From positions 1 through 35,603 of the forward strand of contig JAHIKF010000008.1 of NCBI GenBank assembly GCA_018897875.1: a stretch of DNA of 35,603 nt, read 5' to 3'. The notes under the pieces were generated by a model. That model did no database searches. It was not told where the DNA came from and saw nothing but the letters and a program-made list of their open reading frames with translations. Shown in pieces: positions 7,648-24,808 of the stretch. The stretch comes from Pseudomonadota bacterium. GTDB taxonomy: Bacteria > Desulfobacterota > Desulfobaccia > Desulfobaccales > 0-14-0-80-60-11. The position numbers and the translations under genes are program-made. Each line of letters opens with the position of its first letter. The first letter of the stretch is position 1.

Positions 7648-7652
7648 GGGGA

Positions 7653-10539: not shown

Positions 10540-10549
10540 AAGGCACTCA

Positions 10550-10807: not shown

Positions 10808-12036
10808 TGTCCTCCCGCATCATCGTCACCGGCATGGGTGTTGTCTCCGCCCTGGGCTGGACGCCGACCGCGATCTGGCAAGCTATGGAAGCAGGTTATA
10901 GCGGCCTTGGACCCTTGACCCTGTTCGCCTCCCCCCGCTGCGGACATTTCCCGGTGGGGCAGGTCCAGGGTGACCCAGCTCAGTCCAGCGGCCTGAGCCG
11001 GGGCTCCCGCAGCGACCATCTTGCGGCCTACGCCGCCAGTATGGCCTTTTTGGATGCCGGGTTAGACAAGGTTCCTGCCACCATCAGGAAAAGCATCGGC
11101 CTGGTTCTGGGTGGCACCACTGGCGGGATGCTGGACACCGAGTCTTTCTTCTTGAGAGTAGTCCGGGAAGGTTTCGTTGAAGGGTCCCTGCTGCGGCACC
11201 ACGAATGTTGCCACCCAGCCAATGCCACAGCTGAACTTCTGGGGCTCAATGGCTTCCGTGCTACTCAATCCACCGCTTGCAGCTCGGGACTTATGGCTAT
11301 TGCCACTGCCTGTGACGTCCTTAAAGCTGGTGAAGCCGAAATCATGCTGGCTGGAGGAGTAGACTCTTTAACCAGGCTCACTTTAAATGGTTTCGCCTCT
11401 TTGCTGATAATTGCCCCTGATGGCTGTCGTCCTTTCGATGCCAGACGCACCGGCATGAGCCTGGGGGAAGGAGCTGCGGTCCTGGTCTTGGAAAGGGAAG
11501 AAACGGCCTTGGCAAGGAAGGCGCCCATGCTGGCTGAAATAGGTGGATTCGCCCATACTTGTGAGGCTCATCATCCTACTGCACCCACCCCTGATGGTGC
11601 CGGAATCTACCAGGCTATGGCCTTGGCCTTGCAGCGCGCCGGTCTCACCCCGGCCGACGTGGATTATGTCAATGCTCATGGCACCGGCACCATCGACAAC
11701 GACCTGGCCGAAGGACGGGCCTTGAGCCGCCTGTTTGGTGAGGCGCCCCCCCCCATCTCATCTACCAAGCGCTTTTTCGGACACACCCTGGGTGCCGCCG
11801 GGGCCATCGAGACCGTGGTGTGCATTTTAGCCTTGCAGAATCAAAGGGTGCCAGGAACTCTTGGACTGCTCCACCCCGATCCGAAGATACCCATCAAACC
11901 GCTGCTTGCCCCCGTGAGCGCCACAGTCAAAACCGCGCTCAATAACTCTCTGGGCTTCGGGGGGGCCTGCTCCTCCTTGGTTATCGGCCAGGTGGGCTTT
12001 GGAAGGAATGGAGCCGTGCAAGATGACCGACCCTGA
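10807..12036 (+). CDS. Beta-ketoacyl-ACP synthase (FabF-like, catalytic)
   Basis: Active-site contexts are QSTACSSGLMAIA, NAHGTGT and FFGHTLGAAG. A TAATG overlap links it to the upstream ACP. Confidence 0.92.
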   Translation: MSSRIIVTGMGVVSALGWTPTAIWQAMEAGYSGLGPLTLFASPRCGHFPVGQVQGDPAQSSGLSRGSRSDHLAAYAASMAFLDAGLDKVPATIRKSIGLVLGGTTGGMLDTESFFLRVVREGFVEGSLLRHHECCHPANATAELLGLNGFRATQSTACSSGLMAIATACDVLKAGEAEIMLAGGVDSLTRLTLNGFASLLIIAPDGCRPFDARRTGMSLGEGAAVLVLEREETALARKAPMLAEIGGFAHTCEAHHPTAPTPDGAGIYQAMALALQRAGLTPADVDYVNAHGTGTIDNDLAEGRALSRLFGEAPPPISSTKRFFGHTLGAAGAIETVVCILALQNQRVPGTLGLLHPDPKIPIKPLLAPVSATVKTALNNSLGFGGACSSLVIGQVGFGRNGAVQDDRP

Positions 12037-13159
12037 CCGCGACGCGCTGGCCATCCTGGGCTGCGGCTCCATTCGCCCTGATAGAAACCTGGAACTGTTG
12101 CCTTTGCCGGCTGAGATGGGGGGAGGGGCGGTCTACGCCCACCTGTGCCCCCAATCCCTGGGCAAGGGAGTGATTCCCTCGGGGGTTTATAGAAAGGTGG
12201 GGCGAGCTCAGAAGATGGTGCTGCTGGCCGCACATAAGGCTCTGGAGGAATTCCCGCTCTCCCCATCGGCTCAGGATCAATCTGCGGTGTGCCTGGGGAC
12301 CGGGTTTGGCGAACTGGGAGAGACCTTGCTTTTCCTGGAAAACCTGGTGCGCCTTGAGGAGCGGGAGCCCAAGCCGACCCGGTTCGCCAACTCGGTTCAC
12401 AATTCCCTGGCTTCCCAGGTGGCGATTAATTTCGGCCTCAAAGGCGAAAACCATACCCTTACCCAGGGACCGATATCCTTCGAATTGGCCCTGTGGCAGG
12501 CCGCAGTGTTGCTGCAAACCGGCCGGGCTGGCCATGTTTTGGTCTGCGGGGTCGATGAACTCACGCCTTTCCTTGGCTTTCTCGGGGTCGAGTGCGGGTT
12601 TTGGGGCAAAGAGGATCCCCCTGACCTTCAGGAGATAGAAAGAACCGGCCACAACCACCGGCCCCGCCCCGGAGAAGGGGCGGCCGCTTTCGTGCTGGGA
12701 CTCAGAGGTGCGGCTCCTGCAAAAGGCCTTCTTCCCTGTGTTCATACCATCAAAGTGCAGCCCTTGGAATTGCGGCAGGGGCAGATTATTGATCCGATGG
12801 CGGAACTAAAGTTCGTAATGGATGCCCTTGCCGATAAGGGCGTCTCCCTCGGGAACCTCGACCTCATTATCCTTGGGGCTAATTGCTCGGGCCAGTTGGA
12901 GACGCTGTATCAACCAATATTACAGCTTATTTTTCAGGATATTAGGAAAGAGATTGGCGTTATCTCTTACAAGACTTTATGGGGCGAATTTTCCACCACC
13001 CCGGCACTGGGTCTGGGCCTGGCGGTGGACATCCTCCGGACCGGGAAGATTCCTCCCTGGGTTATTCCTGAGAAAAAGCCTCCTCCGGTTCTTAAGAATA
13101 TCCTCATGTACCAGGTGTCGCCCCTGGGGTTCCATAGTTTGTGCCTGGTAAGGATATGA
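12023..13159 (+). CDS. KS-like chain-length-factor-type protein (no active-site Cys)
   Basis: It has a thiolase-like N-terminal half (FANSVHNSLASQVAINFGLKGENHTLTQGPISFELAL) without the catalytic Cys/His/His. I prefer ATG 12023 because GGAG lies 9 nt upstream. The track ORF begins at TTG 11999. Confidence 0.7.
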   Translation: MTDPDRDALAILGCGSIRPDRNLELLPLPAEMGGGAVYAHLCPQSLGKGVIPSGVYRKVGRAQKMVLLAAHKALEEFPLSPSAQDQSAVCLGTGFGELGETLLFLENLVRLEEREPKPTRFANSVHNSLASQVAINFGLKGENHTLTQGPISFELALWQAAVLLQTGRAGHVLVCGVDELTPFLGFLGVECGFWGKEDPPDLQEIERTGHNHRPRPGEGAAAFVLGLRGAAPAKGLLPCVHTIKVQPLELRQGQIIDPMAELKFVMDALADKGVSLGNLDLIILGANCSGQLETLYQPILQLIFQDIRKEIGVISYKTLWGEFSTTPALGLGLAVDILRTGKIPPWVIPEKKPPPVLKNILMYQVSPLGFHSLCLVRI

Positions 13160-13938
13160 GCCGGTTCCAGATGGCAACCATCGCAGTTGTCGTCCTTGCG
13201 ACGGCCACCGGCGCCTTGGCCCCGGATCCTCTCCGGTGGTGGCTTTGGGGGGGACTTGCCGCTGCGTACCTGGCGCTGGTGGGTTTGGGGGTAACATTTA
13301 GCAGTTGGGGGCTTTTCGGACCGGCTATCTGCCTCGGCAGGCCGGGCGGCATGCGCGTAAGTCTCACATTTGATGACGGACCGGATCCCGCCAGCACTCC
13401 CCGATTGCTGGAAGTTTTGGAGCAACACCAGGTCAAGGCGGCATTTTTCTTGATCGGCCGGCATGCGGAAAGGCACCGCGCCTTGGTGCAGGCCATAGCC
13501 GACAAAGGGCATCTGGTGGGGAATCACACCTACCGCCATGCCTGGTGGACCAATTTTTTATGGGGCGACAGATTAGATCGGGAAATTCAGCGGGCCCAGC
13601 GGGTGTTCCAGGACATCCTGGGAACTGCGCCCCGTTTTTTCCGCAGCCCCATGGGCCTGACCAACCCACAGTTATTCGGAGCCCTGAAACGTATCGGCCT
13701 CCGGTTCGTGGGTTGGGATCTTCGAGGTCTGGACCAGCGGGCTGGCGCGGCGGCACCGGTTATTCGCCGGCTCGCGCACCGATGCCGGGACGGCAGTATA
13801 ATCCTGCTGCACGATGGGGGAGCCAATCCGCAAGTCCTGGTGGACATCGTCCATACCATCATTCCGGCCCTGCGTAATCAAGGTTTTACTTTTGTGCGGC
13901 TTGATGAATCCCTATCCCTGCCTGAAAAGGAAAACTAA
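13156..13938 (+). CDS. Membrane-anchored polysaccharide deacetylase (NodB homology domain)
   Basis: NodB motifs are present: LTFDDGPD and VGNHTYRH. There are N-terminal TM helices. ATG 13156 forms an ATGA overlap with the upstream stop, and GTG 13141 is an alternative start. Confidence 0.88.
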   Translation: MSRFQMATIAVVVLATATGALAPDPLRWWLWGGLAAAYLALVGLGVTFSSWGLFGPAICLGRPGGMRVSLTFDDGPDPASTPRLLEVLEQHQVKAAFFLIGRHAERHRALVQAIADKGHLVGNHTYRHAWWTNFLWGDRLDREIQRAQRVFQDILGTAPRFFRSPMGLTNPQLFGALKRIGLRFVGWDLRGLDQRAGAAAPVIRRLAHRCRDGSIILLHDGGANPQVLVDIVHTIIPALRNQGFTFVRLDESLSLPEKEN

Positions 13939-13942
13939 TTTA

Positions 13943-14698
13943 ATGCAAGTAATCCGTACCTGGTTCCTGATAGCTTGCCTGGTTGGGCTAATTTTAGGAA
14001 ACACCGCGAGTGCGGGCGCGGCTGAAAAGCCCGGTCGGAAAGGTCTGGCCAAGGAAACAGCCGCAGTGAGGAAATCCGCGCACAAGCTCTCCCCAGAGGA
14101 ACTGGCCCAGCTTCTGGAGCGTATTGAAAAGAAGCTGGGCAAAATCCAATCACTCTACACCGATTTTATTCAGGAAAAGCACCTGGAAATTTTCACCCGG
14201 CCGGCAGTAGCTAAGGGGCGGTGCATTTTCCAAAACCCCGGAAAGATGCGGTTTGAAATCATCGAGCCATTCCAGTCAGTCCTCATCGTCAACGACAAGG
14301 CCGTCGCTAAATATGAACTGGTAGAAGGTAAGTGGCAAAAACTCCAATCCAGCCAGCAGCAACTGGTGCTGTTGATCATCGACCACATCACTTTGTGGTT
14401 GCAGGGGCGGCTGCGAGGTAAAGAGGATATTTATGCAATTTCGGCGGAAAAGGGGGAAACCACCAAAGTGATCCTGACCCCCAGGAACGAGGGGTTCAGA
14501 AAACACCTGACAGCCATTGAGCTGGTTATGAACCGGGATGAATCCGGGATCAGGCAGATCATTCTCCGGGAACCAGGGCCAGATTACACGGTGGTCACTT
14601 TTATCAACGACCGGCGGAACCTGGCGATACCCCAGGAAGTATTCAACACCAATAGTCCCGAGCCCCCCCCGATTCCGGATGGATTGGCTGCACCATGA
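13943..14698 (+). CDS. LolA-like outer-membrane lipoprotein carrier family protein (ApeL-like)
   Basis: It has a signal peptide (MQVIRTWFLIACLVGLILGNTASAGA). The pattern after it is LolA-like: LYTDFIQEKHLEIFTRPAVAKGRCIFQNPGKMRFEI. The ATG start at 13943 lies 5 nt after the upstream stop. Confidence 0.7.
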   Translation: MQVIRTWFLIACLVGLILGNTASAGAAEKPGRKGLAKETAAVRKSAHKLSPEELAQLLERIEKKLGKIQSLYTDFIQEKHLEIFTRPAVAKGRCIFQNPGKMRFEIIEPFQSVLIVNDKAVAKYELVEGKWQKLQSSQQQLVLLIIDHITLWLQGRLRGKEDIYAISAEKGETTKVILTPRNEGFRKHLTAIELVMNRDESGIRQIILREPGPDYTVVTFINDRRNLAIPQEVFNTNSPEPPPIPDGLAAP

Positions 14699-15381
14699 TC
14701 CGGGCCTTTCTTTTTCTTATGCTCCTCGCCCAGTTGGCTCCTGGTTGCTGCTCGGTGTCCAAACAGCCTGGCCAGCCTCTGGAAGACCCGGTCCTGTCCC
14801 AAGGGCTGCGTCAGAACCTGGAGAGGCTTTATCCCCATTCCTTCCAAGTCAGCCATCGGTGCATTCTCGAGGCTGCCGGCCGGCAGTTTGTCCTGGAAGG
14901 TTATCTTCGCGTCAATGAACCCGAGAGCTTCAGGCTCTTAGCCAAAGGGGACATGGGTGGCACCGTCTTTGAACTCCAGCAAGTTAAAGGGGAGAAGCCC
15001 GAGGTTGTCAAAAATCCGGTTTCGCTTCGACCTTCGTGGCTTTTGGAGGGAGCGGCCCGAGATATCTCCGTCCTTTATTTTCGGTCGCCACAACCTCAAT
15101 CGCGCCTGGTCCGGTATCAGACCGGGGACATAGGTCTGGCACAGGAAGTTAAGCCTGGTCTTTGGGAAGAATTTCACTTCCAGCCTGAAACCGGCCGCTT
15201 GCTTGCCTATATGCTAATTCAAGGGGGGGAACCGTTTTATCGGGCTGACTTCGGATATTTCGAAGCCTTGTCGCCAGGGGGGCGTGAAGTGCCGCGCACA
15301 ATCACTATCGTCGATCACCGCATGCACTATCGCCTGACTGTCAGAGTCCTGGAAATTGGCGAGATCACCGGTAATCCCTGA
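14695..15381 (+). CDS. Probable lipoprotein, DUF3261-like (ApeN-like position)
   Basis: It has a signal sequence with Cys (MIRAFLFLMLLAQLAPGCC) and an ATGA overlap with the LolA-like gene. The family assignment rests mainly on synteny, since DUF3261 follows LolA/MMPL genes in Ape-type clusters. Confidence 0.5.
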   Translation: MIRAFLFLMLLAQLAPGCCSVSKQPGQPLEDPVLSQGLRQNLERLYPHSFQVSHRCILEAAGRQFVLEGYLRVNEPESFRLLAKGDMGGTVFELQQVKGEKPEVVKNPVSLRPSWLLEGAARDISVLYFRSPQPQSRLVRYQTGDIGLAQEVKPGLWEEFHFQPETGRLLAYMLIQGGEPFYRADFGYFEALSPGGREVPRTITIVDHRMHYRLTVRVLEIGEITGNP

Positions 15382-15394
15382 ATCAAAGGAAATC

Positions 15395-15769
15395 ATGATG
15401 AACATGTGGTCTGACCTTCAGGATTCCCTTGTCACCATCGATCCTGGAATTGAACCTGGCACCTGGGAGGCCAAATTCTGTTTTGCCCCCAGCCTTTCCC
15501 TGTTCAGGGGACATTTTCCCGACAACCCCCTCCTGCCCGGGGTAATGCAAGTGGAAATGGCGCACCTGGCCATGGTCAGAATCACCGGAGCGAATTATCG
15601 GATTGTCGGGGTCAAGAAGGCCAAGTTCACCGGACAAGTTTTCCCCGGCGACCAGATCACGGTCCGCCTGGCAGCCAAAGACCGGGAGGATTACCTCCAG
15701 GTCAGGGACCAGCTTAGTGTGGGGGAAAAAAGGGTGGGGAGCGTCATCCTGGACTTGCAGGCATCATAA
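15395..15769 (+). CDS. fabZ: FabZ-like 3-hydroxyacyl-ACP dehydratase (ApeP-like)
   Basis: The FRGHFPDNPLLPGVMQVEMAHLA motif carries the catalytic His and Glu of FabZ-type hotdog dehydratases. An AAAGGA Shine-Dalgarno sequence lies 5 nt upstream of ATG 15395. Confidence 0.85.
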   Translation: MMNMWSDLQDSLVTIDPGIEPGTWEAKFCFAPSLSLFRGHFPDNPLLPGVMQVEMAHLAMVRITGANYRIVGVKKAKFTGQVFPGDQITVRLAAKDREDYLQVRDQLSVGEKRVGSVILDLQAS

Positions 15770-15778
15770 GGTTTCTAA

Positions 15779-17020
15779 ATGAGCATCGAGCCCCAGCCAG
15801 CCTTTAAAAAATTGGAATCTTCCCTCCGCCTGAAACAATTAATGGCCAGCCATTTTTATGAGCTGGATGAGGCCGCGCGGCGCGGGAGCCACAAAATTGC
15901 CTGGTGCTCCAGTGTGGGGCCCGCGGAACTATTGCGCAGCTTGGGCTTCCTGGTGTATTTCCCCGAAAACCACGCAGCCCTTTTGGGGGCCACCCGGAAG
16001 GCCACCGATTACATCCCCGCCGCCAACGCCATCGGCTATTCTCCGGAGATTTGCAGCTACCTGACCAGTGACATCGGTGCCTGCATCATGGGAGAAACTC
16101 CCCTGTCCAGAGCTTATCCCGGTATTACCCGGGTGCCGCCTCCGGACGTGCTGGTGTACAATACCAATCAATGCCGCGCCGTCAAGGATTGGTTCCAGTG
16201 GTACTCTCGAAAATTCCGGGTTCCCTGTCTGGGCGTGCAAAGCTTTCGCCAAATGGATGAGGTTACCACCCTGCATGTGGCGGCAATAAGCACGCAATTA
16301 CAGCAGTTAATTCCCCCGCTCCAGGAAATATCGGGCACCCGCTTCGACATCGACCGCCTGCGGGAAACCATAGAGCTTTCCCGGCAGTGCAGTGAGCTCT
16401 GGGGGCAGGTACTCGAGACTGCGGCTCATCGGCCCAGCCCTCTCACCTTTTTCGATGGCACCATCCACATGGGCCCCGCAGTTATTGCCCGGGGGACTCA
16501 ATCCGCAGTGGATTACTATATTTTTTTACTGGCCGAACTCCGACAGCGTATCGAGGCCGGGGTGGCTGCGGTGAATCACGAAAATTGTCGTATTTATTGG
16601 GAAGGAATGCCTATCTGGGGAAAACTCCGGGAACTGGCCGCCCTCTTCCTCAGACTCAAGACCTGCGTTGTCGCCTCTACCTATTGTAATTCTTGGATCT
16701 TCTCAGATCTGGACCCCAGAGACCCATTTGAATCCATGGCCCGGGCTTACACCGAATTGTTCATCACGCGAGCCGATGCCTGCAAAGAACGATATATTAA
16801 GCAAATGGTTGAGTTCTATCGGATTGACGGCATCCTGTTTCACGAAGCCAAGACCTGCCCCGACAATTCCAACAGTCTCTACGGGATGCCCCAGCGCCTG
16901 TATCAGCAACTTGGCATTCCCACAGTGGTAATCCATGGGGACCTGAATGACCTCAGGCTTTTCAGCGAAGAGCAAGCCGTGACACGCCTGGAGGCATTTA
17001 TCGAACAGGTCCAGGGTTAA
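15779..17020 (+). CDS. 2-hydroxyacyl-CoA dehydratase / benzoyl-CoA reductase BcrBC-HgdAB family (HGD-D) protein, single subunit
   Basis: The family pattern runs along the whole length: KIAWCSSVGPAELLRSLGFLVYFPENH...CRIYWEGMPIWGKLRELAALF...IDGILFHEAKTCPDNS...LGIPTVVIHGDLNDLR. Conserved Cys residues could serve as Fe-S ligands. No second HGD-D subunit is adjacent. Confidence 0.8.
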   Translation: MSIEPQPAFKKLESSLRLKQLMASHFYELDEAARRGSHKIAWCSSVGPAELLRSLGFLVYFPENHAALLGATRKATDYIPAANAIGYSPEICSYLTSDIGACIMGETPLSRAYPGITRVPPPDVLVYNTNQCRAVKDWFQWYSRKFRVPCLGVQSFRQMDEVTTLHVAAISTQLQQLIPPLQEISGTRFDIDRLRETIELSRQCSELWGQVLETAAHRPSPLTFFDGTIHMGPAVIARGTQSAVDYYIFLLAELRQRIEAGVAAVNHENCRIYWEGMPIWGKLRELAALFLRLKTCVVASTYCNSWIFSDLDPRDPFESMARAYTELFITRADACKERYIKQMVEFYRIDGILFHEAKTCPDNSNSLYGMPQRLYQQLGIPTVVIHGDLNDLRLFSEEQAVTRLEAFIEQVQG

Positions 17021-17025
17021 GAGAC

Positions 17026-17808
17026 ATGAGCGAACTTTACCTGGGCATCGATCTCGGGGCTTCGGCCACCAAGGCGGTTCTTCTCGATAGCCGCCGGCAG
17101 ATTGTCGCCAGGACGGTAGTGGCTACTGGCCTTGATTTCACCCGTGTAGGACAAGAGGTATTGGAGGCCGTCCTCCGACAGGCCGGAGCAGACATGGAGC
17201 ACATCCGGTGCGCCGTGGCCACCGGGTACGGCCGAAAAAATGTGCACTTTCCCTGTCTCAGCAAGACCGAGATCTCCTGCCATGGGCGCGGAGCTTATCA
17301 CTACTTTCCTGAAGCCATCACGGTGGTGGATATTGGCGGCCAGGACACCAAAATCATCAGGCTCGGACCGGATGGCCGTCTCCTCGACTTCCAGATGAAC
17401 CGCAAATGCGCCGCCGGCACGGGCGCTTTCTTGGAAGAGATGGCCCGCCGGCTCGATCTCTCTTTGAGCGAACTGGAGCAACTGGCCGGGCAAAGCCAAC
17501 AGGATGTCAAGCTCGGCTCGTATTGCACGGTCTTTACTTTTACCGAAATCCTGGCCCTGAGCCGCCGTGGGATAGCTGTCCCGGACCTGGTCAAAGCTAT
17601 CTTTAACGCCATTGTCCAACGAGTTACAGAGTTGGGCGTCCTATCCGGCAAGATCGTGGCCACTGGCGGGGTGGTAGCCTACAACCCCACTGTTGCCAAC
17701 CTTCTTGCCAACAGAATCGGCGTTGACCCCCTGATCCCGCCAGAGCCTCAACTTATCGGCGCCCTGGGTGCCGCCCTTTTCGCCTTTGAGGAAGCCGAGC
17801 ATGCATAA
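17026..17808 (+). CDS. BcrAD/BadFG/HgdC-type ATPase (acyl-CoA dehydratase activase)
   Basis: It has an ASKHA fold start (LYLGIDLGASATKAVLLD), then VVDIGGQDTKII, and MNRKCAAGTGAFLE and GSYCTVF (Cys ligands of the bridging [4Fe-4S] cluster in HgdC-type activators). Confidence 0.9.
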   Translation: MSELYLGIDLGASATKAVLLDSRRQIVARTVVATGLDFTRVGQEVLEAVLRQAGADMEHIRCAVATGYGRKNVHFPCLSKTEISCHGRGAYHYFPEAITVVDIGGQDTKIIRLGPDGRLLDFQMNRKCAAGTGAFLEEMARRLDLSLSELEQLAGQSQQDVKLGSYCTVFTFTEILALSRRGIAVPDLVKAIFNAIVQRVTELGVLSGKIVATGGVVAYNPTVANLLANRIGVDPLIPPEPQLIGALGAALFAFEEAEHA

Positions 17809-19189
17809 ACCGCAAGATCGCCACATTTTAGACTTCCTGTTCCAGCCGCGCTCCGTAGCCGTCATCGGGGCCAGCAAGCGGCCGCTCACCATCGGCAACC
17901 GGATTGTCCGAAACTTGATGGACATGCAGTTTACCGGGCCCATCTATCCGGTTCATCCCAAGGACTCGGAAATTGAGGGTCTGGCTGCCTACCCCTCCAT
18001 TTCTCATGTCCCGGGGGACGTGGACCTGGCCCACATCATCGTCAAAAACGTCCAGGTGCCCCGCGTTCTGGCCGACTGCGCCCGCAAGGGTGTGAAGATA
18101 GCCATCATCAACACTGCCGGTTTTAAAGAAGTGGGGCCGGAAGGGGCCCGCCTGGAAGCCGAACTGGTTCGCCTCGCCCAGAGCAACGGGATTCGCATTT
18201 TTGGCCCCAATTGCCAGGGTATCATCAATACTGATCCGGAGGTAAATGCTTATTGCAACTTTACCTTTACCAAACCCCTGGCCGGCTATATCTCAATTTT
18301 TTCTCAGTCGGGGGGTGTGGGGGAGGTGATAAACAATCGCCTTTGCGAACTGGGCGAAGGGTTGCGCATGTATGCCTCCACCGGCAATGCCTGCGACATC
18401 GACTGTCCGGAGATCCTGGAGTTCTGGGGTGATGACCCGGATACCCGGGTCATCATCTGTCACCTGGAAAATATTGAAGACCCGGGAAACTTCATCAAGG
18501 TGGCCCGGGAAGTCTCCCAAAAGAAACCCATTCTCGTTATGCTCACTGGCCGCACCAGTATTGGGGCACGGGCCGTAGCCTTTCATTGTGGCGGGACGAT
18601 TACCGGAAGAATAGGGGACGAATCCCTGGCTGCCGAGTCCGGGGTTCTGGCATTCCGCAGTCTCGAAGAAATCTGCCAGGCTGCGCGTGCCTTTGTCCAT
18701 ATGAAAATTCCACGAGGCAGACGCGTCGGCGTCATCACCAACACGGGGGGGCCAGGGATTATTGCCGCGGATGAACTGAGCGAAGCCGGCTGCGAACTAC
18801 CCGAGCCGGACGAAGCAACCAAGAAAATACTCAGGAGTGCACTTTATCCTGAAGCTATTGTTTCAAACCCGGTTGATGTTCTGGCCACAGCCGGACCGGA
18901 GCACTTTAGGGCGGTGCTGGAGGCAATGCTTGGGGACCCCAATATAGATAGCCTACTCTTTAGTTTCGTTACGCCGTTTTTCGTGGATTGCGAGGCAGTA
19001 GCTCGGGTGGTGGTGGAAGCTAGAGCAAAAACCCATAAGCCGATTGTATGCGTGGTAATGACCGATAAAACTTTATGGAGTTCCACCTTAGAAATTTTTC
19101 GACAGGCCGGGATTCCTACCTACGCCCAGCCGGAGATCGGCGCTCGGGTCCTTGCGGCTATGACCACGTATGGACTAATTGCATCTTAA
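17801..19189 (+). CDS. CoA-binding protein of the ADP-forming acyl-CoA synthetase (ACD/NDP-forming) alpha type; no ATP-grasp beta domain
   Basis: It has LFQPRSVAVIGAS...IYPVHP (CoA-binding Rossmann), GIRIFGPNCQGIIN and a His-loop region (AVAFHCGGTITG). At 462 aa it lacks the ATP-grasp part of fused ACDs. ATG 17801 overlaps the activase stop. Confidence 0.8.
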   Translation: MHKPQDRHILDFLFQPRSVAVIGASKRPLTIGNRIVRNLMDMQFTGPIYPVHPKDSEIEGLAAYPSISHVPGDVDLAHIIVKNVQVPRVLADCARKGVKIAIINTAGFKEVGPEGARLEAELVRLAQSNGIRIFGPNCQGIINTDPEVNAYCNFTFTKPLAGYISIFSQSGGVGEVINNRLCELGEGLRMYASTGNACDIDCPEILEFWGDDPDTRVIICHLENIEDPGNFIKVAREVSQKKPILVMLTGRTSIGARAVAFHCGGTITGRIGDESLAAESGVLAFRSLEEICQAARAFVHMKIPRGRRVGVITNTGGPGIIAADELSEAGCELPEPDEATKKILRSALYPEAIVSNPVDVLATAGPEHFRAVLEAMLGDPNIDSLLFSFVTPFFVDCEAVARVVVEARAKTHKPIVCVVMTDKTLWSSTLEIFRQAGIPTYAQPEIGARVLAAMTTYGLIAS

Positions 19190-19235: not shown

Positions 19236-19835
19236 TCACTTAAAATACCGGCCCAACATGAAAATTACGGACTCGACTCCCTTATTGTTATGATTCAATC
19301 CGGCGTTGGAGATGTGATGATACCGTGCAGCCGCGAAAAACGGCAACCCTGAACCAATCATGATTTCGGTGCCGATACCCGCCTGGGGATTGAAATTTAT
19401 CCGCGAGCCCTGCCCCTTCACCTGAAAGTCGGTATAGATAACGCCGATGCCCCCTTCGATATAGGGACGCGTATAGCGGGTGGAGATAAAATCCAGGTAA
19501 TATAAGGCCAGCATCCCCAGTGAGGTCATAAAGCGGGCCTGGGGTGTCAGGCTCGAGCCGATGGTACCCTCTAATTTCCACCGCAACAACTTGGGCGCCG
19601 GGTGATGCCAGACCTTGGCATAATCCCACATGCCAAAGGCCGAGAGTTGCAGGAAGCGGATATCAGACTGGGGCGCAAAAGTGTTGCCATAGATGAGAGC
19701 AGCACCGTAGCGACCGCGCACTTCTTCCTCCTCCGGAGCCTGGCCCGACGCCAGGCCGGAGAAGATTGGAAGAAGCAAGCATGCCAACATTATCGGCAGG
19801 AATAGATGTGCCCGGAAAGGATAGTTCCTAAACAT
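19236..19835 (-). CDS. pagL: PagL-like lipid A 3-O-deacylase / acyloxyacyl hydrolase outer-membrane protein
   Basis: It has a signal peptide, a beta-barrel-like alternating pattern and a C-terminal Phe-rich end. The motif HHISNAG...NKGVE (19272-19316) has His-x-Ser and a Glu 12 residues after the Ser, the same spacing as the PagL His126/Ser128/Glu140 triad. Confidence 0.85.
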   Translation of the reverse strand: MFRNYPFRAHLFLPIMLACLLLPIFSGLASGQAPEEEEVRGRYGAALIYGNTFAPQSDIRFLQLSAFGMWDYAKVWHHPAPKLLRWKLEGTIGSSLTPQARFMTSLGMLALYYLDFISTRYTRPYIEGGIGVIYTDFQVKGQGSRINFNPQAGIGTEIMIGSGLPFFAAARYHHISNAGLNHNNKGVESVIFMLGRYFK

Positions 19836-20785: not shown

Positions 20786-23431
20786 TTACTCCAAAGCCAT
20801 GAGGATCAGCTCGGCAATATCCATCACTTTCACCACATCTCCTGGTTCCCGGCTCTTGCTGATTCCCCTGGTTAGTTGGCGTTTGCACATCGGACAAGCG
20901 GTGCCAATAATCTGGGCTCCGGATTCTCGGCTTTGTCCAGCCCGCCTTGCAGCCATGTGTACGGCAAGCTCCCCTGATAATGCCGGCACGCCGCTGCCGC
21001 CACCACAGCATACCGACTCCTCCCGCTGTTGGGGAAATTCCATCAGCGTGACCCCGGGGATGGATTCCAGAAGCCGGCGCGGTTCCGTGTAGATCCCCAG
21101 ATGTCTGCCGAGGAGGCAGGGATCATGATAAATTACCTGCTGCCCTAAACTGCGTTTGAACTCCAGCTTGCCGTTGGCAAACATCTGGTAAAGGTATTCA
21201 GGGATGCTTTGCACCTTAAGACGCCAACCATCCACTACCTGGGGATATAGCTGCCCCAGGGCGATCAAACAGCTGGGGCAAGGAGTTATGACCAACTCCG
21301 GGCTATGGGTGATAATTCTGGCCGCCAACGCCCTGGCGGCCTGGCGGAATGCTTCCTCCCCGCCCCATTGAGCTAAGGGTTGACCACAGCAAATCTCATC
21401 GTCCAGAACGGCATAGGGCACCCGGGCCAGATCCAGGATGCGCAGCAGTGAAAAAGAGAGGCGCCGGTCCAGATAGCTGGCGTCGCAACCCAAATAAACC
21501 AGCACCTTGGCTTGCTTACTATTTGAAATACACTGCCCTTGGGGGAACTGGCCGCGCCGGAACCGCTTTTCCCGGGATAGACCGTAAGGGTTCCCGGTAC
21601 GTTGGAGCTTGGCCACCATGGCTTGATACTCTTTGGGGAGATAGCCGGACTTGAAGCTTTGCCGTCGCATGGTCGTCACCAGACCGGCCACGTCAATCTC
21701 AGCGGGGCAATGGCTCTGGCAGGCCCCGCAAGTGGTGCAAAGGTAAAATTTCCGCGCTACTTCCTCGGAAAGGGCAAGCCCGCCGGTGCGCACCAGGTTC
21801 GCCAGCTGCATTTTGCCGCGCACATTGTCCCCCTCACGCCCGGTGACTGCAAAAATAGGACATGCCGCACGGCAGAAGCCGCACATCATGCAAAGGAGGG
21901 CATCGCGATCGGCGCGCTTAGAGCCCAGGCTGGCCAGGCTCCCCGGCCTGGTGCTTGGAACAGCGAAGGCGAAGTGGCTTGGCTTGACTGGAAAATCGGC
22001 GAAAAATCCCAGCTTGCCCGGGTTCATGATATCTTGCGGGTCAAGAAAATTCTTTACCTGGTGCATCAGGGCATGGCTGGTGCCCAGTTCTTGCTTGATG
22101 AAAGAGGCTTTTGCCAGACCAATGCCATGCTCCGCGGAAATTGTTCCTCCCAGCTCAAGAGCCAGGCGATGCAAGTCATCGGCCAGTTGTTTGGCTTTCT
22201 CCCATTCCTCTCTATCAAGAGGATTGATTATAAAAGTGGTGTGGATGTTCCCGTCTCCTGCATGACCAAAGAGGACAACCCGCACCCCTGAGGCCGCGGC
22301 CAATTCCTGGCTGCGGCGGACGGCCTCGGGGACCCTGCTCACCGGCACCCCGATATCTTCGGCCATGGGCACGAGCCGCGTCCCATTCCGGCAGGAACTC
22401 AGCGCGGTCACCAAGTGCTGTCGCCAGCGCCAGATTTTCTCCCGCTCACTGGACTTTTCTATGACATATACCCGGGTGGCACCGACTTGAGTGCATAGAG
22501 CATGCAACTCTTCAATCTTACCGGTTACCATTGAGTTGGGGCCATCTATTTCCAGAAGGAGCATGCCCCTGGTGTCAGGGAAATCGAGGCCGGTATCCGG
22601 GGTGAACCCCTGGAGTGAATACCAGTCCATCAACTCACAAGCCGAGAGAGGCATACCGCTCGCGAGGATTTGGACTGCGGCTTGCGCTGCCGCCTCCAAA
22701 GAAGGAAAACCGGCGATACAGGTGCGGATGGCTTCCGGCCGGGGTAGGATGCGCAGGGTGGCCTCGGTAATCACTCCCATCGTGCCTTCAGCGGACACAA
22801 ATAGGCGGGTCAGATCAAACCCTGTCGAGGCTTTGGGTGTGCGGTGCCCGGGGTGGATAATTTCCCCCGTTGCCAGGACCACTTCCAAAGCCAGGACATA
22901 ATCGGCGGTAGTCCCATATTTGAGGGCGCTCCGGCCGGAGGCGTTGGTGGAGATCATCCCCCCGATGGTGGCCACTTCCAGGCTCCCGGGGTCCGGAGGG
23001 AAATAATAGGTCGGCGCCAGGGCAGCATTGAGCCGGCCACAGACGACCCCCGGTTCCACTACGACATATTGATCCACCAGATTTATCTCTTTGATACGGT
23101 TCATCCCGGAAAGATCCAGGACAATTCCACCCTTGATAGGGATCACGGCTCCGGTAACACTGGTTCCGGCCCCTCGGGGCGTGATGGGAATTTTATTTTG
23201 GAGGGCGAACTTCAGGATTTTCTGGACATCGCTCGCACCTTCGGCCATGACCACGGCATCGGGGACCGCCGTATAAATGGACATGTCCCTGGAATAGGCC
23301 ACGCATTCAGGGCCCTTTCCAAGTATTTTCTTGCTTCCCAGGAGGTTGGTTAATTCGTGAATCAAATTGAACTTCATATCCGGAGCAGTGACCCTTACCT
23401 TCCCGAGTTCGGTAACTGGATTCTCTCCCAT
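20786..23431 (-). CDS. FAD-linked oxidase (GlcD / PCMH type) fused to 4Fe-4S dicluster and CCG (GlcF/HdrD-like) domains
   Basis: The N-terminus matches FAD_binding_4 (PDAVVMAEGASDVQKILKFALQNKIPITPRGAGTSVTG). The middle carries two CxxCxxCxxxCP motifs (CMMCGFCRAACP, CTTCGACQSHCP). The C-terminus has two Cys-rich CCG-type repeats (LGCDASY...EICCGQP; HDPCLLGRH...VCCGGGSG). Confidence 0.88.
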   Translation of the reverse strand: MGENPVTELGKVRVTAPDMKFNLIHELTNLLGSKKILGKGPECVAYSRDMSIYTAVPDAVVMAEGASDVQKILKFALQNKIPITPRGAGTSVTGAVIPIKGGIVLDLSGMNRIKEINLVDQYVVVEPGVVCGRLNAALAPTYYFPPDPGSLEVATIGGMISTNASGRSALKYGTTADYVLALEVVLATGEIIHPGHRTPKASTGFDLTRLFVSAEGTMGVITEATLRILPRPEAIRTCIAGFPSLEAAAQAAVQILASGMPLSACELMDWYSLQGFTPDTGLDFPDTRGMLLLEIDGPNSMVTGKIEELHALCTQVGATRVYVIEKSSEREKIWRWRQHLVTALSSCRNGTRLVPMAEDIGVPVSRVPEAVRRSQELAAASGVRVVLFGHAGDGNIHTTFIINPLDREEWEKAKQLADDLHRLALELGGTISAEHGIGLAKASFIKQELGTSHALMHQVKNFLDPQDIMNPGKLGFFADFPVKPSHFAFAVPSTRPGSLASLGSKRADRDALLCMMCGFCRAACPIFAVTGREGDNVRGKMQLANLVRTGGLALSEEVARKFYLCTTCGACQSHCPAEIDVAGLVTTMRRQSFKSGYLPKEYQAMVAKLQRTGNPYGLSREKRFRRGQFPQGQCISNSKQAKVLVYLGCDASYLDRRLSFSLLRILDLARVPYAVLDDEICCGQPLAQWGGEEAFRQAARALAARIITHSPELVITPCPSCLIALGQLYPQVVDGWRLKVQSIPEYLYQMFANGKLEFKRSLGQQVIYHDPCLLGRHLGIYTEPRRLLESIPGVTLMEFPQQREESVCCGGGSGVPALSGELAVHMAARRAGQSRESGAQIIGTACPMCKRQLTRGISKSREPGDVVKVMDIAELILMALE

Positions 23432-23491: not shown

Positions 23492-24733
23492 CTATCGTAA
23501 ATCACATCCTTCCACATGCCGGAAGTCAAACAGCAGCGAGGCGTAGGTTCCTCCGAAACCAAAGGAGTTGGAAAGGGCCATTCTGATTCTTGCCGGAGTG
23601 CATTCGGTGATAATCTTGATTCTGGGGCAATCTGGCTGGAAACTGTTGAAATTCAGATTCGGAGCGATGAAGCCTTCCCGGGCCATCAGGATAGTGTAAA
23701 GAGCCTCGCTTGCCCCCGCCATCCAACATTCATGGCCGGTCATGGATTTAGTTGAAGAGACGGGAACACCTTCGCCGAACACCGCCGCAATGGCCTGGGC
23801 TTCCACAAGATCCCCTGCAGGAGTGGAGGTGGCGTGGGCGTTAATGTAATCGACCTCTTGGTGACCAATCCCGCCATCTTGCAAGGCCATCTGCATGGCC
23901 CTTATGGCCCCTGAAAGGCTCGGTTCCGAAAGGTTGGCGCCTACCTGAGAGGCAAAGCCATAACCCCTGACGATCCCGTAAATCCGCGCACCCCGTTTCC
24001 GGGCGTGCTCCAGTTCCTCCAGGATCAAACAGGCAGCGCCACCACTGGGCACCAATCCATCCCGTTCGGCATCGAAAGGCCGGGAAGCTTTCTCTGGGGC
24101 ATCGTGACGGCGGGAAAAGGCCCCTAAGGCATCGAAGCTGGCTATGCTTTGCCAGTTGGTCTCCTGGGCCCCGCCGACGATGACGATATCCTGCAACCCG
24201 CTGCGGATAAGCATCAGGGCCTGGCCAATGACGTGGGCCCCGCTGGCACAGGCGGCGCTTAATGACCAATTCGCACCCTGGGTGCCAAAATAGGCAGCCA
24301 GATTCATGGATATGGTGGAGTTCATAGACTTGAACACGTAGCCTGATCCCAGATAATGAGTTCCGCCATGTTCATTCACCAGATCGATGGCCTCTACTGC
24401 CGCGCCGACAGTGCTATCGTTGCCGAAGATAAGGCCGCACCGGTCATTGCGAAGATGCTCCTCCAAGAGACCTGAGTCCTTGACGGCAGCGATGGCCGCG
24501 GCCGCGGCATATTGCGCCGGTTCTCCCATGGTGTTTAGGTGCTTGCGTTTCAAGCCCCATTGTCGCGGGTCGAAGTCTGCAATCCGACCGGTCAGGCCAG
24601 ACCGAAACCCCCGTTTTATCCTGTCCTCATCTAATATAACCCCAGATTTTCCTTGCTTTAATGAACAAGCGACCTCATTGAGGGTTTGCCCGATACAGGA
24701 AATTATTCCCAACCCGGTAATTGCAACTGTCAT
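23492..24733 (-). CDS. Beta-ketoacyl-ACP synthase, FabB (KAS I)-like
   Basis: Active-site contexts are SLSAACASGAHVIGQA and NAHATSTPAGD. It also has KSMTGHECWMAGASEALYTILMAREGFIAPNLN, a FabB-like tail with an unusual ECWM in place of LLGA. I prefer ATG 24733 (MTVAITGLGII, with GGAG 6 nt upstream). The track ORF extends to ATG 24805. Confidence 0.88.
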   Translation of the reverse strand: MTVAITGLGIISCIGQTLNEVACSLKQGKSGVILDEDRIKRGFRSGLTGRIADFDPRQWGLKRKHLNTMGEPAQYAAAAAIAAVKDSGLLEEHLRNDRCGLIFGNDSTVGAAVEAIDLVNEHGGTHYLGSGYVFKSMNSTISMNLAAYFGTQGANWSLSAACASGAHVIGQALMLIRSGLQDIVIVGGAQETNWQSIASFDALGAFSRRHDAPEKASRPFDAERDGLVPSGGAACLILEELEHARKRGARIYGIVRGYGFASQVGANLSEPSLSGAIRAMQMALQDGGIGHQEVDYINAHATSTPAGDLVEAQAIAAVFGEGVPVSSTKSMTGHECWMAGASEALYTILMAREGFIAPNLNFNSFQPDCPRIKIITECTPARIRMALSNSFGFGGTYASLLFDFRHVEGCDLR

Positions 24734-24808
24734 TCCGATCTCCGAGGAAGGCAAGTTTGCCAAAGCCTTACTGGAATCCATGCCGCTTTTGTCTCCAGCC
24801 GGCATAGG

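Follow-up and report, generated by a model that had tools for sequence, protein, structure and literature searches.

Why should genes for a system of the oxygen-sensitive, ATP-primed kind that includes 2-hydroxyacyl-CoA dehydratases and benzoyl-CoA reductases stand at the end of an operon for a polyene-type lipid? The window analyzed here, an entire contig of 35,603 bp from the MAG of a Desulfobacterales member related to sulfate reducers, carries an ACP-based lipid/polyketide pathway for which Pfam and NCBIfam searches of the whole window found two ACPs, four KS and two CLF-like proteins and FabG, as well as ApeP-like and ApeI-like dehydratases, a thioesterase, an LpxL-like acyltransferase, a LolA-like protein, a CrtD-like desaturase, an MMPL fusion protein and a B12-rSAM protein matching TIGR04072 (429 bits; cutoff, 360). 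The plus-strand lipid operon (4987..15769) encodes, in order, an ACP, the LpxL-like acyltransferase, the TIGR04072 B12-rSAM, the ApeP-like dehydratase, the thioesterase, KS/CLF, an ACP, KS/CLF, a polysaccharide deacetylase, the LolA-like protein, a lipoprotein and the ApeI-like dehydratase, and is syntenic with loci L081, L164, and L088. The minus-strand operon (23492..34980) encodes a GT2, an MMPL-acyltransferase-methyltransferase fusion, the CrtD-like desaturase, KS, a C45 acyltransferase-TPR protein, FabG, and KS and, the C45 gene apart, is syntenic with L088.

The ApeI-like protein, a FabA/FabZ-type dehydratase (15356..15769, plus strand; Pfam FabA, 40 bits; ApeI-like, 34.7 bits), is the product of the final canonical gene of the plus-strand operon. 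Nine nucleotides past its stop codon begins the gene for a 413-aa HGD-D protein (15779..17020, plus strand; PF06050, 203.5 bits), the predicted [4Fe-4S] catalytic component. After a further 5 nt comes the gene for a 260-aa HadI/HgdC-type ATP-dependent activase, or archerase (17026..17808, plus strand; BcrAD_BadFG; TIGR00241, 211.5 bits against a cutoff of 125.4), followed by one for the alpha part only of an NDP-forming acyl-CoA synthetase (ACD; 17801..19189, plus strand; Pfam CoA_binding_2, Succ_CoA_lig, and Ligase_CoA_2). The open reading frames and domains thus agree with an earlier note on this DNA, which had described HGD-D, activase, and ACD alpha genes closing the plus-strand operon at 15779-19189. 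The overlap it reported between the second and third genes is real, yet it is 8 nt long if the ACD gene starts at ATG 17801, the likely start according to homologue alignment, and not 41 nt, as in the longest open reading frame, which starts at GTG 17768. By gene order, the trio sits within the lipid operon, as that note had said, and the tight spacing suggests that it may be cotranscribed with it. On the far side, a convergent gene for a PagL-like outer-membrane protein (19236..19835, minus strand; Pfam PagL, 66.6 bits) marks the site of the insertion and holds the equivalent place in L001, L081, L164, and L171.

The best solved relative of the HGD protein in profile searches is HadB (3o3m_A; 212 bits). 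An AF2 model (pLDDT, 86.6) gave Foldseek TM scores of 0.88 to 0.91 to HadB, ~0.86 to BzdO/MbdO, 0.77 to DCCP, and 0.69 to 0.74 to beta-type subunits, and the protein is a single subunit of the alpha (HadB/BzdO-like) type. In alignments, the three cluster cysteines of HadB and BzdO have their counterparts in C92, C132, and C360, and the conserved PEN(H) glutamate is present as E63 within a PENH motif. The position of the catalytic His131 of BzdO (this residue and the BzdN cluster-ligand list are from PMC11971306) is occupied by V135; it is Ala in HadB. Sequence and fold nearest to HadB, retention of the three cluster cysteines and of the PEN(H) Glu, and a Val in place of the BzdO His together point to dehydratase-like chemistry and to neither ring reduction nor a double-cubane protein. 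The same markers, together with a low double-cubane score, tell against the framing of the module in the earlier note as a low-potential redox system or one for ring dearomatization.

Some features of the protein would suit an enzyme that uses ATP for net reduction, like benzoyl-CoA reductases or double-cubane proteins, and whose substrate in the pathway would be a polyene, an aromatic head group, or some other unsaturated thioester. After HadB, BcrB and MbdO/BzdO come next among the relatives, the single-gene, presumably homodimeric architecture is like that of DCCP, and three further cysteines (C43, C204, and C303) are conserved, of which C43 and C303 follow beta-strands whose BzdN and DCCP counterparts also precede Cys. 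With C303 conserved at 90%, the protein has 5 or 6 conserved cysteines, so the cluster type is not fixed by sequence. However, C303 is Ala in ~10% of the family (Planctomycetota-type sequences) and is therefore unlikely to be an essential ligand, and the Val at the His131 position is what dehydratases have. NCBIfam scores also fall far short of the cutoffs (double_cubane [NF040772], 50 versus 350; BcrB, 175 versus 486.55; BzdO, 80 versus 448.6), and the module has only one ATPase gene and no gene for a ferredoxin or other electron donor. We regard a reductase as very improbable.

No second HGD-like open reading frame was found in the window, either by Pfam searches of all long open reading frames or by hmmsearch of every six-frame open reading frame with a family profile; the single HGD-type subunit that had been noted holds here and throughout the family. 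The dedicated HgdC-type activase is likewise present. Its best PDB match is HadI (4eht; 190 bits), and the KCAAGTG and CTVF cysteine motifs line up between the two; it also matches MbdQ at 187 bits. In nearly all of 80 related loci, the activase gene adjoins the HGD gene.

The third protein is less conventional. It scores 427 bits against TIGR02717, under the cutoff of 567, and has the alpha subunits 2csu and 4xyl as its best PDB matches. The phosphohistidine-loop His is retained (AFHCGG), and flanking residues are altered (Ser to Phe/Tyr; Lys248 to Leu/Tyr). A tblastn search found no ATP-grasp-like sequence anywhere in the 35.6-kb window or in L001 and L081, which bears out the description of an alpha-only ACD with a His loop, and without an ATP-grasp partner this protein alone cannot activate an acid with ATP. 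ACD relatives outside lipid clusters are fused alpha-plus-beta proteins of ~694 aa, and six alpha-only ACDs form one clade (100% neighbor-joining bootstrap). Within our sample, alpha-only ACDs with no neighboring ATP-grasp gene occur only beside HGD genes of the same clade as that of the window, and, on contigs long enough to show their surroundings, they adjoin lipid genes.

That clade comprises the HGD proteins of the window and of L001, L081, L164, L167, L168, and L003, which form a subclade of the single-subunit family with 100% bootstrap support in neighbor-joining trees, the only kind used. Any ACD gene present at these loci is of the alpha-only form, and wherever enough context is visible, the HGD gene adjoins thiotemplate lipid genes. 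It stands at the end of a KS/CLF operon in the window and in L001, L081, L164, and L171. In L167, it lies inside an operon, in a trio of overlapping genes between ApeI and the genes for a B12-rSAM and a StlD/DarB-family ketosynthase; in L168, it is beside an ACP gene; on the P0005 contig, it is between ApeI and an LpxL-like acyltransferase gene; and in L003, it overlaps a gene for a PfaA-type synthase by 14 nt. With at least five arrangements beside KS/CLF-ACP, DarB/StlD-type, or PfaA-type genes, the evolutionary link to thiotemplate lipid clusters is real.

The converse does not hold. The trio was found in none of 80 sampled orthologous lipid clusters anchored by the TIGR04072 rSAM gene, including L088, which is syntenic with the window gene for gene and has a SPASM rSAM gene that the window lacks. 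Of the co-occurrence proposed in the earlier note, the association of the subclade with KS/CLF-type genes thus stands, whereas the expectation that orthologous clusters would carry the trio, whose absence that note had named as evidence against its proposal, fails in 80 of 80 cases. In general, then, the lipid pathway can do without the trio.

Nor is the module peculiar to lipid operons. The parent HGD family is large (at least 598 species genomes) and single subunit, with 60 to 70% identity across bacterial and archaeal phyla. Among 73 parent-family loci, neighboring genes encode a full-length ACD in 51, an AMP-ligase in 27, a PanE-like reductase in 25, IOR/PaaK in ~10, a thiolase in 9, a GlcD-CCG protein directly upstream in 3, and enoyl-CoA hydratase and hydroxyacyl-CoA dehydrogenase in a few. 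Close relatives of the window protein (69 to 70% identity) keep the same company: full-length ACD, AMP-ligase, PanE-like or GlcD-CCG 2-hydroxyacid dehydrogenases, and sometimes IOR/PaaK. Such neighbors fit a pathway that runs from a 2-oxoacid through a 2-hydroxyacid and its CoA ester to an enoyl-CoA. The lipid-linked form thus branches off from a module that is autonomous, very widespread, and accompanied by catabolic-type neighbors, a kind of context that the earlier note had also listed against itself. The four core lipid-linked members depart from their non-lipid relatives at just one (V236I) of the 172 columns in which those relatives show 90% or higher conservation, and clade signatures are only four and weak, so there is no sequence sign of a new substrate.

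A further gene may belong with the trio. The minus-strand lipid operon ends with a gene (20786..23431, minus strand) for an 881-aa fusion of a GlcD-type FAD oxidase with 4Fe-4S and CCG domains (Pfam/NCBIfam; glcD, 374 bits), a probable D-2-hydroxyacid dehydrogenase by sequence that is a candidate for the fourth component of the module. The gene keeps this position in L001, L081, and L164 and is absent from the trio-less L088. A homologous fusion gene lies directly upstream of HGD-activase-AMP-ligase genes in the non-lipid loci L008, L046, and L073.

These observations could mean that the trio and GlcD-CCG are an ordinary module for 2-hydroxy acid fermentation or degradation that in a single ancestor came to lie between two lipid operons, was inherited in that place, and has no lipid role. 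The autonomy of the parent family, the absence of the trio from all of the sampled orthologous clusters, and catalytic positions essentially identical to those of non-lipid relatives agree with such an accident. So does the fact that the trio and GlcD-CCG are both extra relative to L088 and form one operon in L008, L046, and L073. Moreover, the lipid-linked copies are monophyletic, so a single insertion could explain most of the synteny, which could largely be inherited rather than independently selected. However, the linkage has outlived rearrangements (operon-internal in L167, ApeI-HGD-acyltransferase on P0005, and a different assembly-line type, PfaA, in L003), the loss of the ATP-grasp part coincides with the lipid-linked clade, and a degradative ACD minus its ATP-forming half makes little sense. 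On balance, we think chance insertion unlikely.

We tentatively favor the view that the trio is a lipid-cluster-dedicated branch of the widespread single-subunit 2-hydroxyacyl-CoA dehydratase system that feeds an unsaturated acyl-CoA to the KS/CLF pathway. By analogy with HadBC/HadI, the 413-aa protein, probably a homodimer, would hold an alpha-type [4Fe-4S] cluster on three cysteines with one open iron site, and the activase would deliver a single low-potential electron at the expense of ATP hydrolysis. In a bound (R)-2-hydroxyacyl-CoA, the thioester carbonyl would become a ketyl radical, the 2-hydroxyl would be lost, (E)-2-enoyl-CoA would be released, and the electron would be recycled, giving no net reduction. 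In this Desulfobacterales lineage, the module and the GlcD-FeS-CCG dehydrogenase would start from a 2-hydroxy or 2-oxo acid and make an alpha,beta-unsaturated acyl-CoA. The ACP-based KS/CLF pathway would take up this product, and its most plausible place there is that of a starter other than acetate. Cinnamoyl- and coumaroyl-CoA, the starters of the stilbene and flexirubin pathways, offer an analogy. Searches of the window turned up neither an adenylating enzyme nor an ammonia-lyase nor a FabH-type loader, which leaves no other candidate there for supplying a starter. The alpha-only ACD would handle the CoA thioester, either borrowing an ATP-grasp subunit from elsewhere or carrying out the CoA/phosphate half-reaction alone. 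Of the starters suggested earlier, a 2-hydroxy acid derivative is the one we favor, and the HadB-like markers disfavor the reduced-ring version.

The 2-hydroxyacyl-CoA dehydratase reactions are reversible, and the HGD protein most likely interconverts 2-hydroxyacyl-CoA and 2-enoyl-CoA for the lipid pathway. Run in reverse as a tailoring step, it might add water at C-2 of a trans-2-enoyl thioester from an ApeI-like or PS-DH dehydratase, an oxygen-independent alpha-hydroxylation yielding a 2-hydroxyacyl chain that GlcD-CCG could oxidize to the 2-oxo acid. A FabA/FabZ-type gene or domain directly precedes the HGD gene wherever the upstream gene is visible (ApeI in L001, L081, L082, L164, L167, L171, and the P0005 contig; the PS-DH domain of the PfaA-type synthase in L003), and a D-2-hydroxyacid dehydrogenase-type gene has been corecruited. 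However, ApeI closes the ancestral operon, so that adjacency may merely mark the insertion site. Furthermore, the dehydratase products are ACP bound, whereas, to our knowledge, all known HGD-family members act on CoA esters, and the module has a CoA-binding ACD. Hydration seems to us quite improbable, and we return to the dehydratase reading, under which the module probably supplies or modifies a building block of an anaerobic lipid.

Among known systems, HadBC/HadI of Clostridioides difficile (3O3M and 4EHT) shares with the window the HGD-D fold, the cluster cysteines, the PEN-motif Glu, and a single adjacent HadI-like activase gene. HadBC and the related 2-hydroxyglutaryl-, phenyllactyl-, and lactyl-CoA dehydratases also have a hydrophobic residue at the His131 position, and 2-oxoacid reductase or 2-hydroxyacid dehydrogenase genes stay close by in the parent family. 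In contrast to the alpha/beta heterodimer HadBC, the window module has one alpha-type subunit gene, whose product is ~26% identical to HadB (NCBIfam equivalog, 189 versus a cutoff of 750) and has two or three extra conserved cysteines. In place of a CoA-transferase gene, it has the alpha part of an NDP-forming synthetase, and its subclade resides in ACP-based lipid/polyketide clusters, not in amino acid fermentation operons. Class I benzoyl-CoA reductases (BcrABCD; BzdNOPQ, 8S02; MbdONPQ, 9G87/9GAI) belong to the same superfamily, with a three-Cys [4Fe-4S] site, a related ATPase, and an O/B-type subunit that is the second-best fold match, but they need two different HGD-type subunits, of which one bears an [8Fe-9S] cluster, along with ATPase subunits of two kinds. 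DCCP/DCCP-R of Carboxydothermus hydrogenoformans (6ENO and 7YYL) resembles the module in pairing one HGD-type gene with one activase gene, making a homodimer plausible; only the C-terminal half of the window protein aligns with DCCP (29 bits), and the six-Cys DCCP ligand set could not be demonstrated in it.

The ACD protein shares the three alpha-part domains and the phosphohistidine-loop His with Pyrococcus PH0766 (2CSU) and "Ca. Korarchaeum" ACD1 (4XYL), and archaeal ACDs, too, have a separate alpha polypeptide of ~460 aa; the window and related lipid-linked loci differ in lacking a beta (ATP-grasp) gene. The surroundings of the trio recall the aryl-polyene (E. coli ape) clusters and the "ladderane-like" type II lipid clusters of Desulfotalea psychrophila and Kuenenia stuttgartiensis (Rattray et al. 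2009, PMC2649909). Although those described clusters, like the 80 sampled orthologous loci, lack the HGD/activase/ACD trio and GlcD-CCG, the window resembles them in its KS/CLF pairs, ACPs, ApeI-like and ApeP-like dehydratases, LolA-like protein, LpxL-like acyltransferase, MMPL exporter, CrtD-like desaturase, and TIGR04072 B12-rSAM.

The HGD, activase, and ACD (NDP-forming acyl-CoA synthetase) alpha genes are co-directional on the plus strand, and inspection of the open reading frames (ORFs) together with domain scans bore out both the composition of this trio and its placement in a lipid operon, as the earlier note had described them. The HGD gene (15779 to 17020, +) starts 9 nt past the stop codon of a gene for an ApeI-like FabA/FabZ-type dehydratase (15356 to 15769) and encodes a 413-amino-acid protein matching the Pfam family HGD-D (PF06050; 203.5 bits versus a cutoff of 28.4). 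The activase (17026 to 17808, +; 260 amino acids) belongs to the BcrAD_BadFG/TIGR00241 family (211.5 bits versus a cutoff of 125.4). The ACD alpha gene runs from 17768 or 17801 to 19189 (+; 473 or 462 amino acids), and its product carries CoA_binding_2, Succ_CoA_lig, and Ligase_CoA_2 domains without ATP-grasp. Alignment of homologues made the ATG at 17801 the most likely start, giving the overlap with the activase gene that had been read from the sequence, of 8 nt.

The window is one whole contig of 35,603 bp from a Desulfobacterales metagenome-assembled genome. The setting of the trio is two convergent operons of an ACP-based lipid cluster of the aryl-polyene-like or "ladderane-like" kind. 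The B12-radical SAM protein (rSAM) of the plus operon passes the cutoff of the NCBIfam "lipid biosynthesis" equivalog TIGR04072 (429 bits versus 360), and the hallmarks of TIGR04072-type clusters are present in the window: rSAM_ladder_B12, KS/CLF, ACP, ApeI/ApeP-like dehydratases, a LolA-like protein, and an LpxL-like acyltransferase. Rattray et al. noted such a cluster type in Desulfotalea and Kuenenia (PMC2649909). Domain scans of the window found neither an adenylating enzyme nor an ammonia-lyase nor a loader of the FabH type. A search of positions 13000 to 24000 for promoters and terminators was uninformative, because the counts were not above those in shuffled sequence.

Several other features of the window were recorded. 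Upstream of the plus operon there is a gene for a sigma-54-dependent transcriptional activator (1463 to 2977, −), the contig start carries a gene for a pentapeptide-repeat protein (228 to 677, −), and positions 3000 to 4600 hold several small ORFs without a family match, in a stretch where G+C content (0.60) and GC skew peak relative to the rest of the window. In a 1307-amino-acid ORF (30094 to 34017, −), an MMPL/RND-type transporter is fused to a PlsC-type acyltransferase and a SAM-methyltransferase domain. Between KS4 and FabG lies a gene for a C45-family autoproteolytic acyltransferase with C-terminal TPR repeats (25617 to 27314, −). The longest FabG ORF (TTG 25837) overlaps this gene by ~220 nt, and its FabG domain starts only at residue 105, so the true FabG start is probably further downstream.

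The class of the HGD protein was assessed by NCBIfam, PDB-profile, and Foldseek scores, in place of a tree with HgdA/B, FldB/C, and YjiM. When the family profile was compared with the PDB, the best solved relative was HadB (212 bits), followed by MbdO and BzdO; the beta subunit HadC gave E = 0.005, and the double-cubane cluster protein (DCCP) matched with only 29 bits and over the C-terminal half only, the N-terminal halves failing to align. HadB (3o3m_A) binds the substrate as the alpha subunit of 2-hydroxyisocaproyl-CoA dehydratase. An AF2 model of the HGD protein (pLDDT 86.6) gave Foldseek TM scores of 0.88 to 0.91 with HadB 3o3m_A, ~0.86 with MbdO and BzdO, 0.77 with DCCP, and 0.69 to 0.74 with beta-type subunits. 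In the alignment, C92, C132, and C360 line up with the cluster cysteines of HadB, BzdO, and MbdO, and E63, within an invariant PENH motif (PENQ in HadB), is aligned with Glu65 of BzdO. The [4Fe-4S]-OH2 cluster of BzdO is held by Cys95/128/380, with Glu65 near the site, and the acid/base residue His131 adjoins the second cluster cysteine (PMC11971306). We predict from the aligned residues an alpha-type [4Fe-4S] site with three Cys ligands, an open fourth iron site, and a nearby Glu.

The protein nevertheless stands apart from each named family. It scored 189 bits against NF052455 (HadB; cutoff, 750), with 26% identity to HadB, 175 bits against BcrB (cutoff, 486.55), 80 bits against BzdO (cutoff, 448.6), and 50 bits against the double-cubane family NF040772 (cutoff, 350); it falls outside the two-subunit dehydratases, the benzoyl-CoA reductases (BCRs), and the DCCPs and is a separate, single-subunit, alpha-type lineage. 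Only one HGD-like ORF was found in the window by Pfam scans and a family-profile search of six-frame ORFs, one PF06050 gene is present in each of five related loci (L081, L164, L165, L166, and L167), and no conserved second HGD paralogue occurs among the neighbours of 73 loci, so the claim of a single subunit stands. The family conserves six Cys columns: C43 (100%), C92, C132, C204 (97%), and C360, all at 97 to 100%, and C303 at 90%, the last being Ala in Planctomycetota-type members. C43, C204, and C303 are all missing from HadB, Cys43 being common to MbdO, and these extra cysteines could form a second cluster or a disulfide or make contacts with the activase. The six-Cys pattern is suggestive of a double-cubane protein, an identity that we disfavour on the weak scores (50 bits versus 350; 29 bits). 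The earlier note had further proposed low-potential redox chemistry, including ring dearomatisation. The BcrB, BzdO, and NF040772 scores speak against this, as does Val135, which occupies the position of BzdO His131 (Ala in HadB), and we regard a net BCR- or DCCP-like reduction as very improbable.

The HGD protein has thousands of homologues at 60 to 70% identity, and a scan of one genome per species placed relatives in at least 598 candidate stretches. We sampled 80 loci from these, which came from Desulfobacterota, Planctomycetota, Acidobacteriota, Aminicenantes, Elusimicrobia, Chloroflexota, Zixibacteria, Thermoplasmatota, and Asgard archaea, and mapped all window proteins onto them. The activase gene lies beside the HGD gene in nearly all related loci, and an ACD gene is adjacent in about two thirds of the 80. 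Clustering of neighbours, which covered 73 loci, recovered a full-length fused ACD (alpha plus ATP-grasp_5, about 692 to 712 amino acids) in 51, a fatty-acyl-type AMP-ligase in 27, a PanE/ApbA-type 2-oxoacid reductase in 25, the alpha and beta subunits of indolepyruvate:ferredoxin oxidoreductase (IOR) in 11 and 8, an SSF transporter in 11, and a PaaK-like ligase and a thiolase in 9 each. In L008, L046, and L073, a GlcD-FeS-CCG fusion directly upstream of HGD-activase-AMP-ligase is homologous to the probable D-2-hydroxyacid dehydrogenase of the window (GlcD-CCG; 20786 to 23431, −). These neighbours make the parent module look like a route that converts a 2-oxoacid to enoyl-CoA by way of the 2-hydroxyacid and its CoA ester, apparently centred on a one-subunit dehydratase. 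Full-text literature searches found no published description of this single-subunit HGD family.

The wider family thus has a catabolic context of the kind that the earlier note had named as evidence against its reading, for example, in L165 and L166 (69 to 70% identity), both of them non-lipid loci that carry a full-length ACD together with an AMP-ligase. The trio might accordingly be an inherited catabolic module that is merely hitch-hiking beside lipid genes. A first count placed lipid genes beside the trio in 1 of 80 loci, and among these 80 loci lipid genes adjoin HGD only in L001 (97% identical, same lineage) and L003. Conversely, in a metagenome scan anchored on the TIGR04072 rSAM, none of the 80 loci sampled had HGD, activase, or ACD within 10 kb of the rSAM. 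Absence from orthologous clusters was likewise what the earlier note had said would tell against it, and it extends to L088, a distant locus (rSAM, 46% identical) that matches the window gene for gene between the MMPL fusion and ApeI and has neither the trio nor GlcD-CCG. The trio is not a regular component of the TIGR04072 cluster type and is confined to one clade. L088 has two extra genes (8904 to 9992 and 19752 to 20663), neither of which the window has: one encodes a SPASM-domain radical SAM protein and lies between the genes for the LpxL-like acyltransferase and the B12-rSAM; the other follows ApeI and encodes a DUF1207 outer-membrane protein. As these are the only extras, L088 shows no clear complementarity in the form of a starter-supply gene in place of the trio. 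L088 matches the MMPL fusion over residues 326 to 1299, the match beginning at the L088 edge, and it is without the C45 gene, since KS4 and FabG abut there.

Against hitch-hiking, closer relatives and homologues of the alpha-only ACD show recurrent linkage to lipid genes in several architectures. In L081 (HGD, 75% identity; rSAM, 61%), the order is LolA-lipoprotein-ApeI-HGD-activase-ACD alpha (463 amino acids), convergent with PagL and, farther on, GlcD-CCG-KS-FabG. L164 (HGD, 70%) is arranged in the same way, and L171 has ApeI-HGD-activase-ACD alpha (463 amino acids), again convergent with PagL; in the L164 lineage, a second B12-rSAM comes after FabG. These three loci provide the co-occurrence with KS/CLF-type lipid genes that the earlier note had proposed looking for, and four further loci show other thiotemplate settings. 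Two of the four, L167 and L168, came from a search with the alpha-only ACD as query. In L167 (ACD, 56% identity), the genes abut or overlap in the order ACP-ApeP-LolA-x-ApeI-HGD-activase-ACD alpha (466 amino acids)-B12 rSAM-StlD/DarB-family ketosynthase; in this cluster (4964 to 15881), the trio lies mid-operon, and the B12-rSAM after it is HpnR-like, not TIGR04072. The ketosynthase (534 bits versus a cutoff of 450) and this organisation suggest a dialkylresorcinol- or stilbene-like branch. L168 (ACD, 62%) has HGD-ACD alpha beside an ACP, and the P0005 contig (HGD, 71%) has ApeI-HGD-LpxL-like acyltransferase. In L003 (HGD, 65%), the gene for a 2192-amino-acid PfaA-type synthase (KS-AT-ACP-KR-DH; TIGR02813, 1350 bits versus a cutoff of 1010) shares a 14-nt overlap with HGD-activase. 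This locus (99 to 8717), from another Desulfobacterales metagenome-assembled genome, has the activase after HGD and no ACD before the contig end.

In neighbour-joining trees, the only kind built (200 bootstraps), the seven thiotemplate-linked HGDs formed one clade and the six alpha-only ACDs another, each with 100% bootstrap support. Together with the loci, these clades show that thiotemplate linkage and loss of ATP-grasp belong to a single, well-defined branch. Within this branch, HGD keeps its catalytic positions; a single column out of 172 conserved ones differs, and four positions are weak signatures. Because the lipid-linked clade is monophyletic, part of the synteny is simply inherited. 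The linkage has been kept through several rearrangements and with two synthase classes, which we take as moderate evidence for functional coupling of the trio with lipid assembly genes. On the recurrent linkage in several architectures, we dropped hitch-hiking as the main conclusion and keep it as an unlikely rival.

The activase is closest to HadI (4eht; 190 bits), with both cluster-Cys motifs aligned. ACD alpha matches PDB 2csu at 307 bits and the alpha subunit of 4xyl at 265 bits, and its score against TIGR02717 (AcCoA-syn-alpha) is 427.4 bits, below the cutoff of 567.15. As had been reported from the sequence, it retains the phosphohistidine-loop His (AFHCGG) and has no ATP-grasp_5 domain by Pfam; a tblastn search of the window, L001, and L081 for a separate ATP-grasp gene or a remnant of one had no hit, and none of the called genes of L081, L164, L167, and L171 encodes ATP-grasp_5. 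In a search with the alpha-only ACD, all 11 matches at ≥65% identity were alpha-only, and from 63% identity down almost all were fused (~694 amino acids). In L169 (825 to 2932), two adjacent genes, one for the alpha part (495 amino acids) and one for ATP-grasp (207 amino acids), make up an ACD relative (56% identical), and HGD is absent from the vicinity; outside the lipid-linked clade, there are therefore alpha-only genes that have a beta gene beside them.

Between the window and L081, protein identity is 49 to 75% for genes other than ACD alpha. Across window positions 17801 to 19835 and L081 positions 12025 to 14904, it reaches 87% for ACD alpha and 82% for PagL. Strong purifying selection on ACD alpha was rejected as the cause on the third-codon-position identity at identical residues, which is 82% for ACD alpha and 79% for PagL versus 46 to 52% for KS2, HGD, activase, GlcD-CCG, and KS3 (60 to 74% protein identity). 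The high third-position identity seems instead to reflect recent exchange of an ~2-kb segment between otherwise diverged lineages.

The mechanism that we favour, tentatively, is canonical 2-hydroxyacyl-CoA dehydratase (HAD) chemistry turned to biosynthetic use. The co-recruited GlcD-FeS-CCG dehydrogenase would handle a 2-oxo or 2-hydroxy acid, which would be carried as a CoA thioester with the involvement of ACD alpha. The activase would give ATP-driven one-electron priming, the CoA thioester would then be dehydrated, and the 2-enoyl-CoA product would feed the KS/CLF pathway, where a role as starter is the simplest. The Photorhabdus stilbene pathway (StlD) starts from cinnamoyl-CoA, and the IOR and PaaK genes beside about 1/10 of parent-family loci hint weakly at aryl-substituted substrates. 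The enzyme could also work backwards and hydrate the dehydratase product, which would yield 2-hydroxyacyl lipids without O2; we consider this improbable. In its general form, our proposal, which falls somewhat short of an even chance, is that this branch of the HAD/BCR superfamily, with a single subunit and an ACD lacking its ATP-grasp half, is a dedicated component of polyene- and polyunsaturated-fatty-acid-type thiotemplate lipid pathways of strict anaerobes. Its task would be one of two: turning a 2-hydroxy acid into an alpha,beta-unsaturated CoA starter, possibly an aryl-acryloyl one, with no need of an ammonia-lyase, or O2-free 2-hydroxylation of an enoyl thioester. Of the earlier interpretation, the lipid link and the idea of a 2-hydroxy acid or starter stand; the redox, dearomatisation, and double-cubane framing is disfavoured.

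These results describe a very large, highly conserved single-subunit HGD family across anaerobic bacteria and archaea, with a well-supported offshoot that accompanies lipid assembly genes of the ACP-based, DarB/StlD, and PfaA types. In annotation, genes of this family should not count as a sign of aromatic degradation or of glutamate fermentation. Should the link prove functional, ATP-primed ketyl-radical chemistry would join the toolbox of anaerobic lipid and polyketide biosynthesis, and the CoA-level side branch would offer a handle on the products of "ladderane-like" Desulfobacterota clusters. The literature searched held no link of the HAD family to aryl-polyene, flexirubin, ladderane-like, or Pfa clusters; a Geobacter activase paper concerns a different, activase-only gene. 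If our proposal is true, lipid or polyketide biosynthesis would gain its first assigned ketyl-radical dehydratase, as far as that literature shows, and a new role would be implied for the alpha-only ACD protein.

Judged from sequence and structural model, the HGD system would work like a HAD-type ketyl-radical dehydratase, a type that removes water from an (R)-2-hydroxyacyl-CoA in an ATP-primed, redox-neutral reaction. Like HAD systems, the trio has a catalytic component of the HGD-D fold and a dedicated activator of the HgdC/HadI type. HAD systems differ in being alpha/beta heterodimers encoded by side-by-side genes, whereas the trio has a single HGD gene, and in activating the 2-hydroxy acid with a CoA-transferase, whereas domain scans found no CoA-transferase domain in the window; ACD and/or AMP-ligase genes occupy the expected place in related loci. 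All characterised 2-hydroxyacyl-CoA dehydratases are, to our knowledge, two-subunit enzymes of amino-acid fermentation, and we know of no characterised class I BCR that is not a four-subunit enzyme of aromatic degradation. Class I BCRs combine two HGD-type with two BcrAD-type ATPase subunits, whereas the window has one gene of each type, and the acid/base His131 (BzdO) is replaced by Val in the HGD protein. With ACD enzymes, the window protein has in common the alpha-part domains and the His loop, whereas the ATP-grasp (beta) part is missing at the locus. The biochemical type of this system is known; its subunit composition, ACD partner, and biosynthetic context are new.
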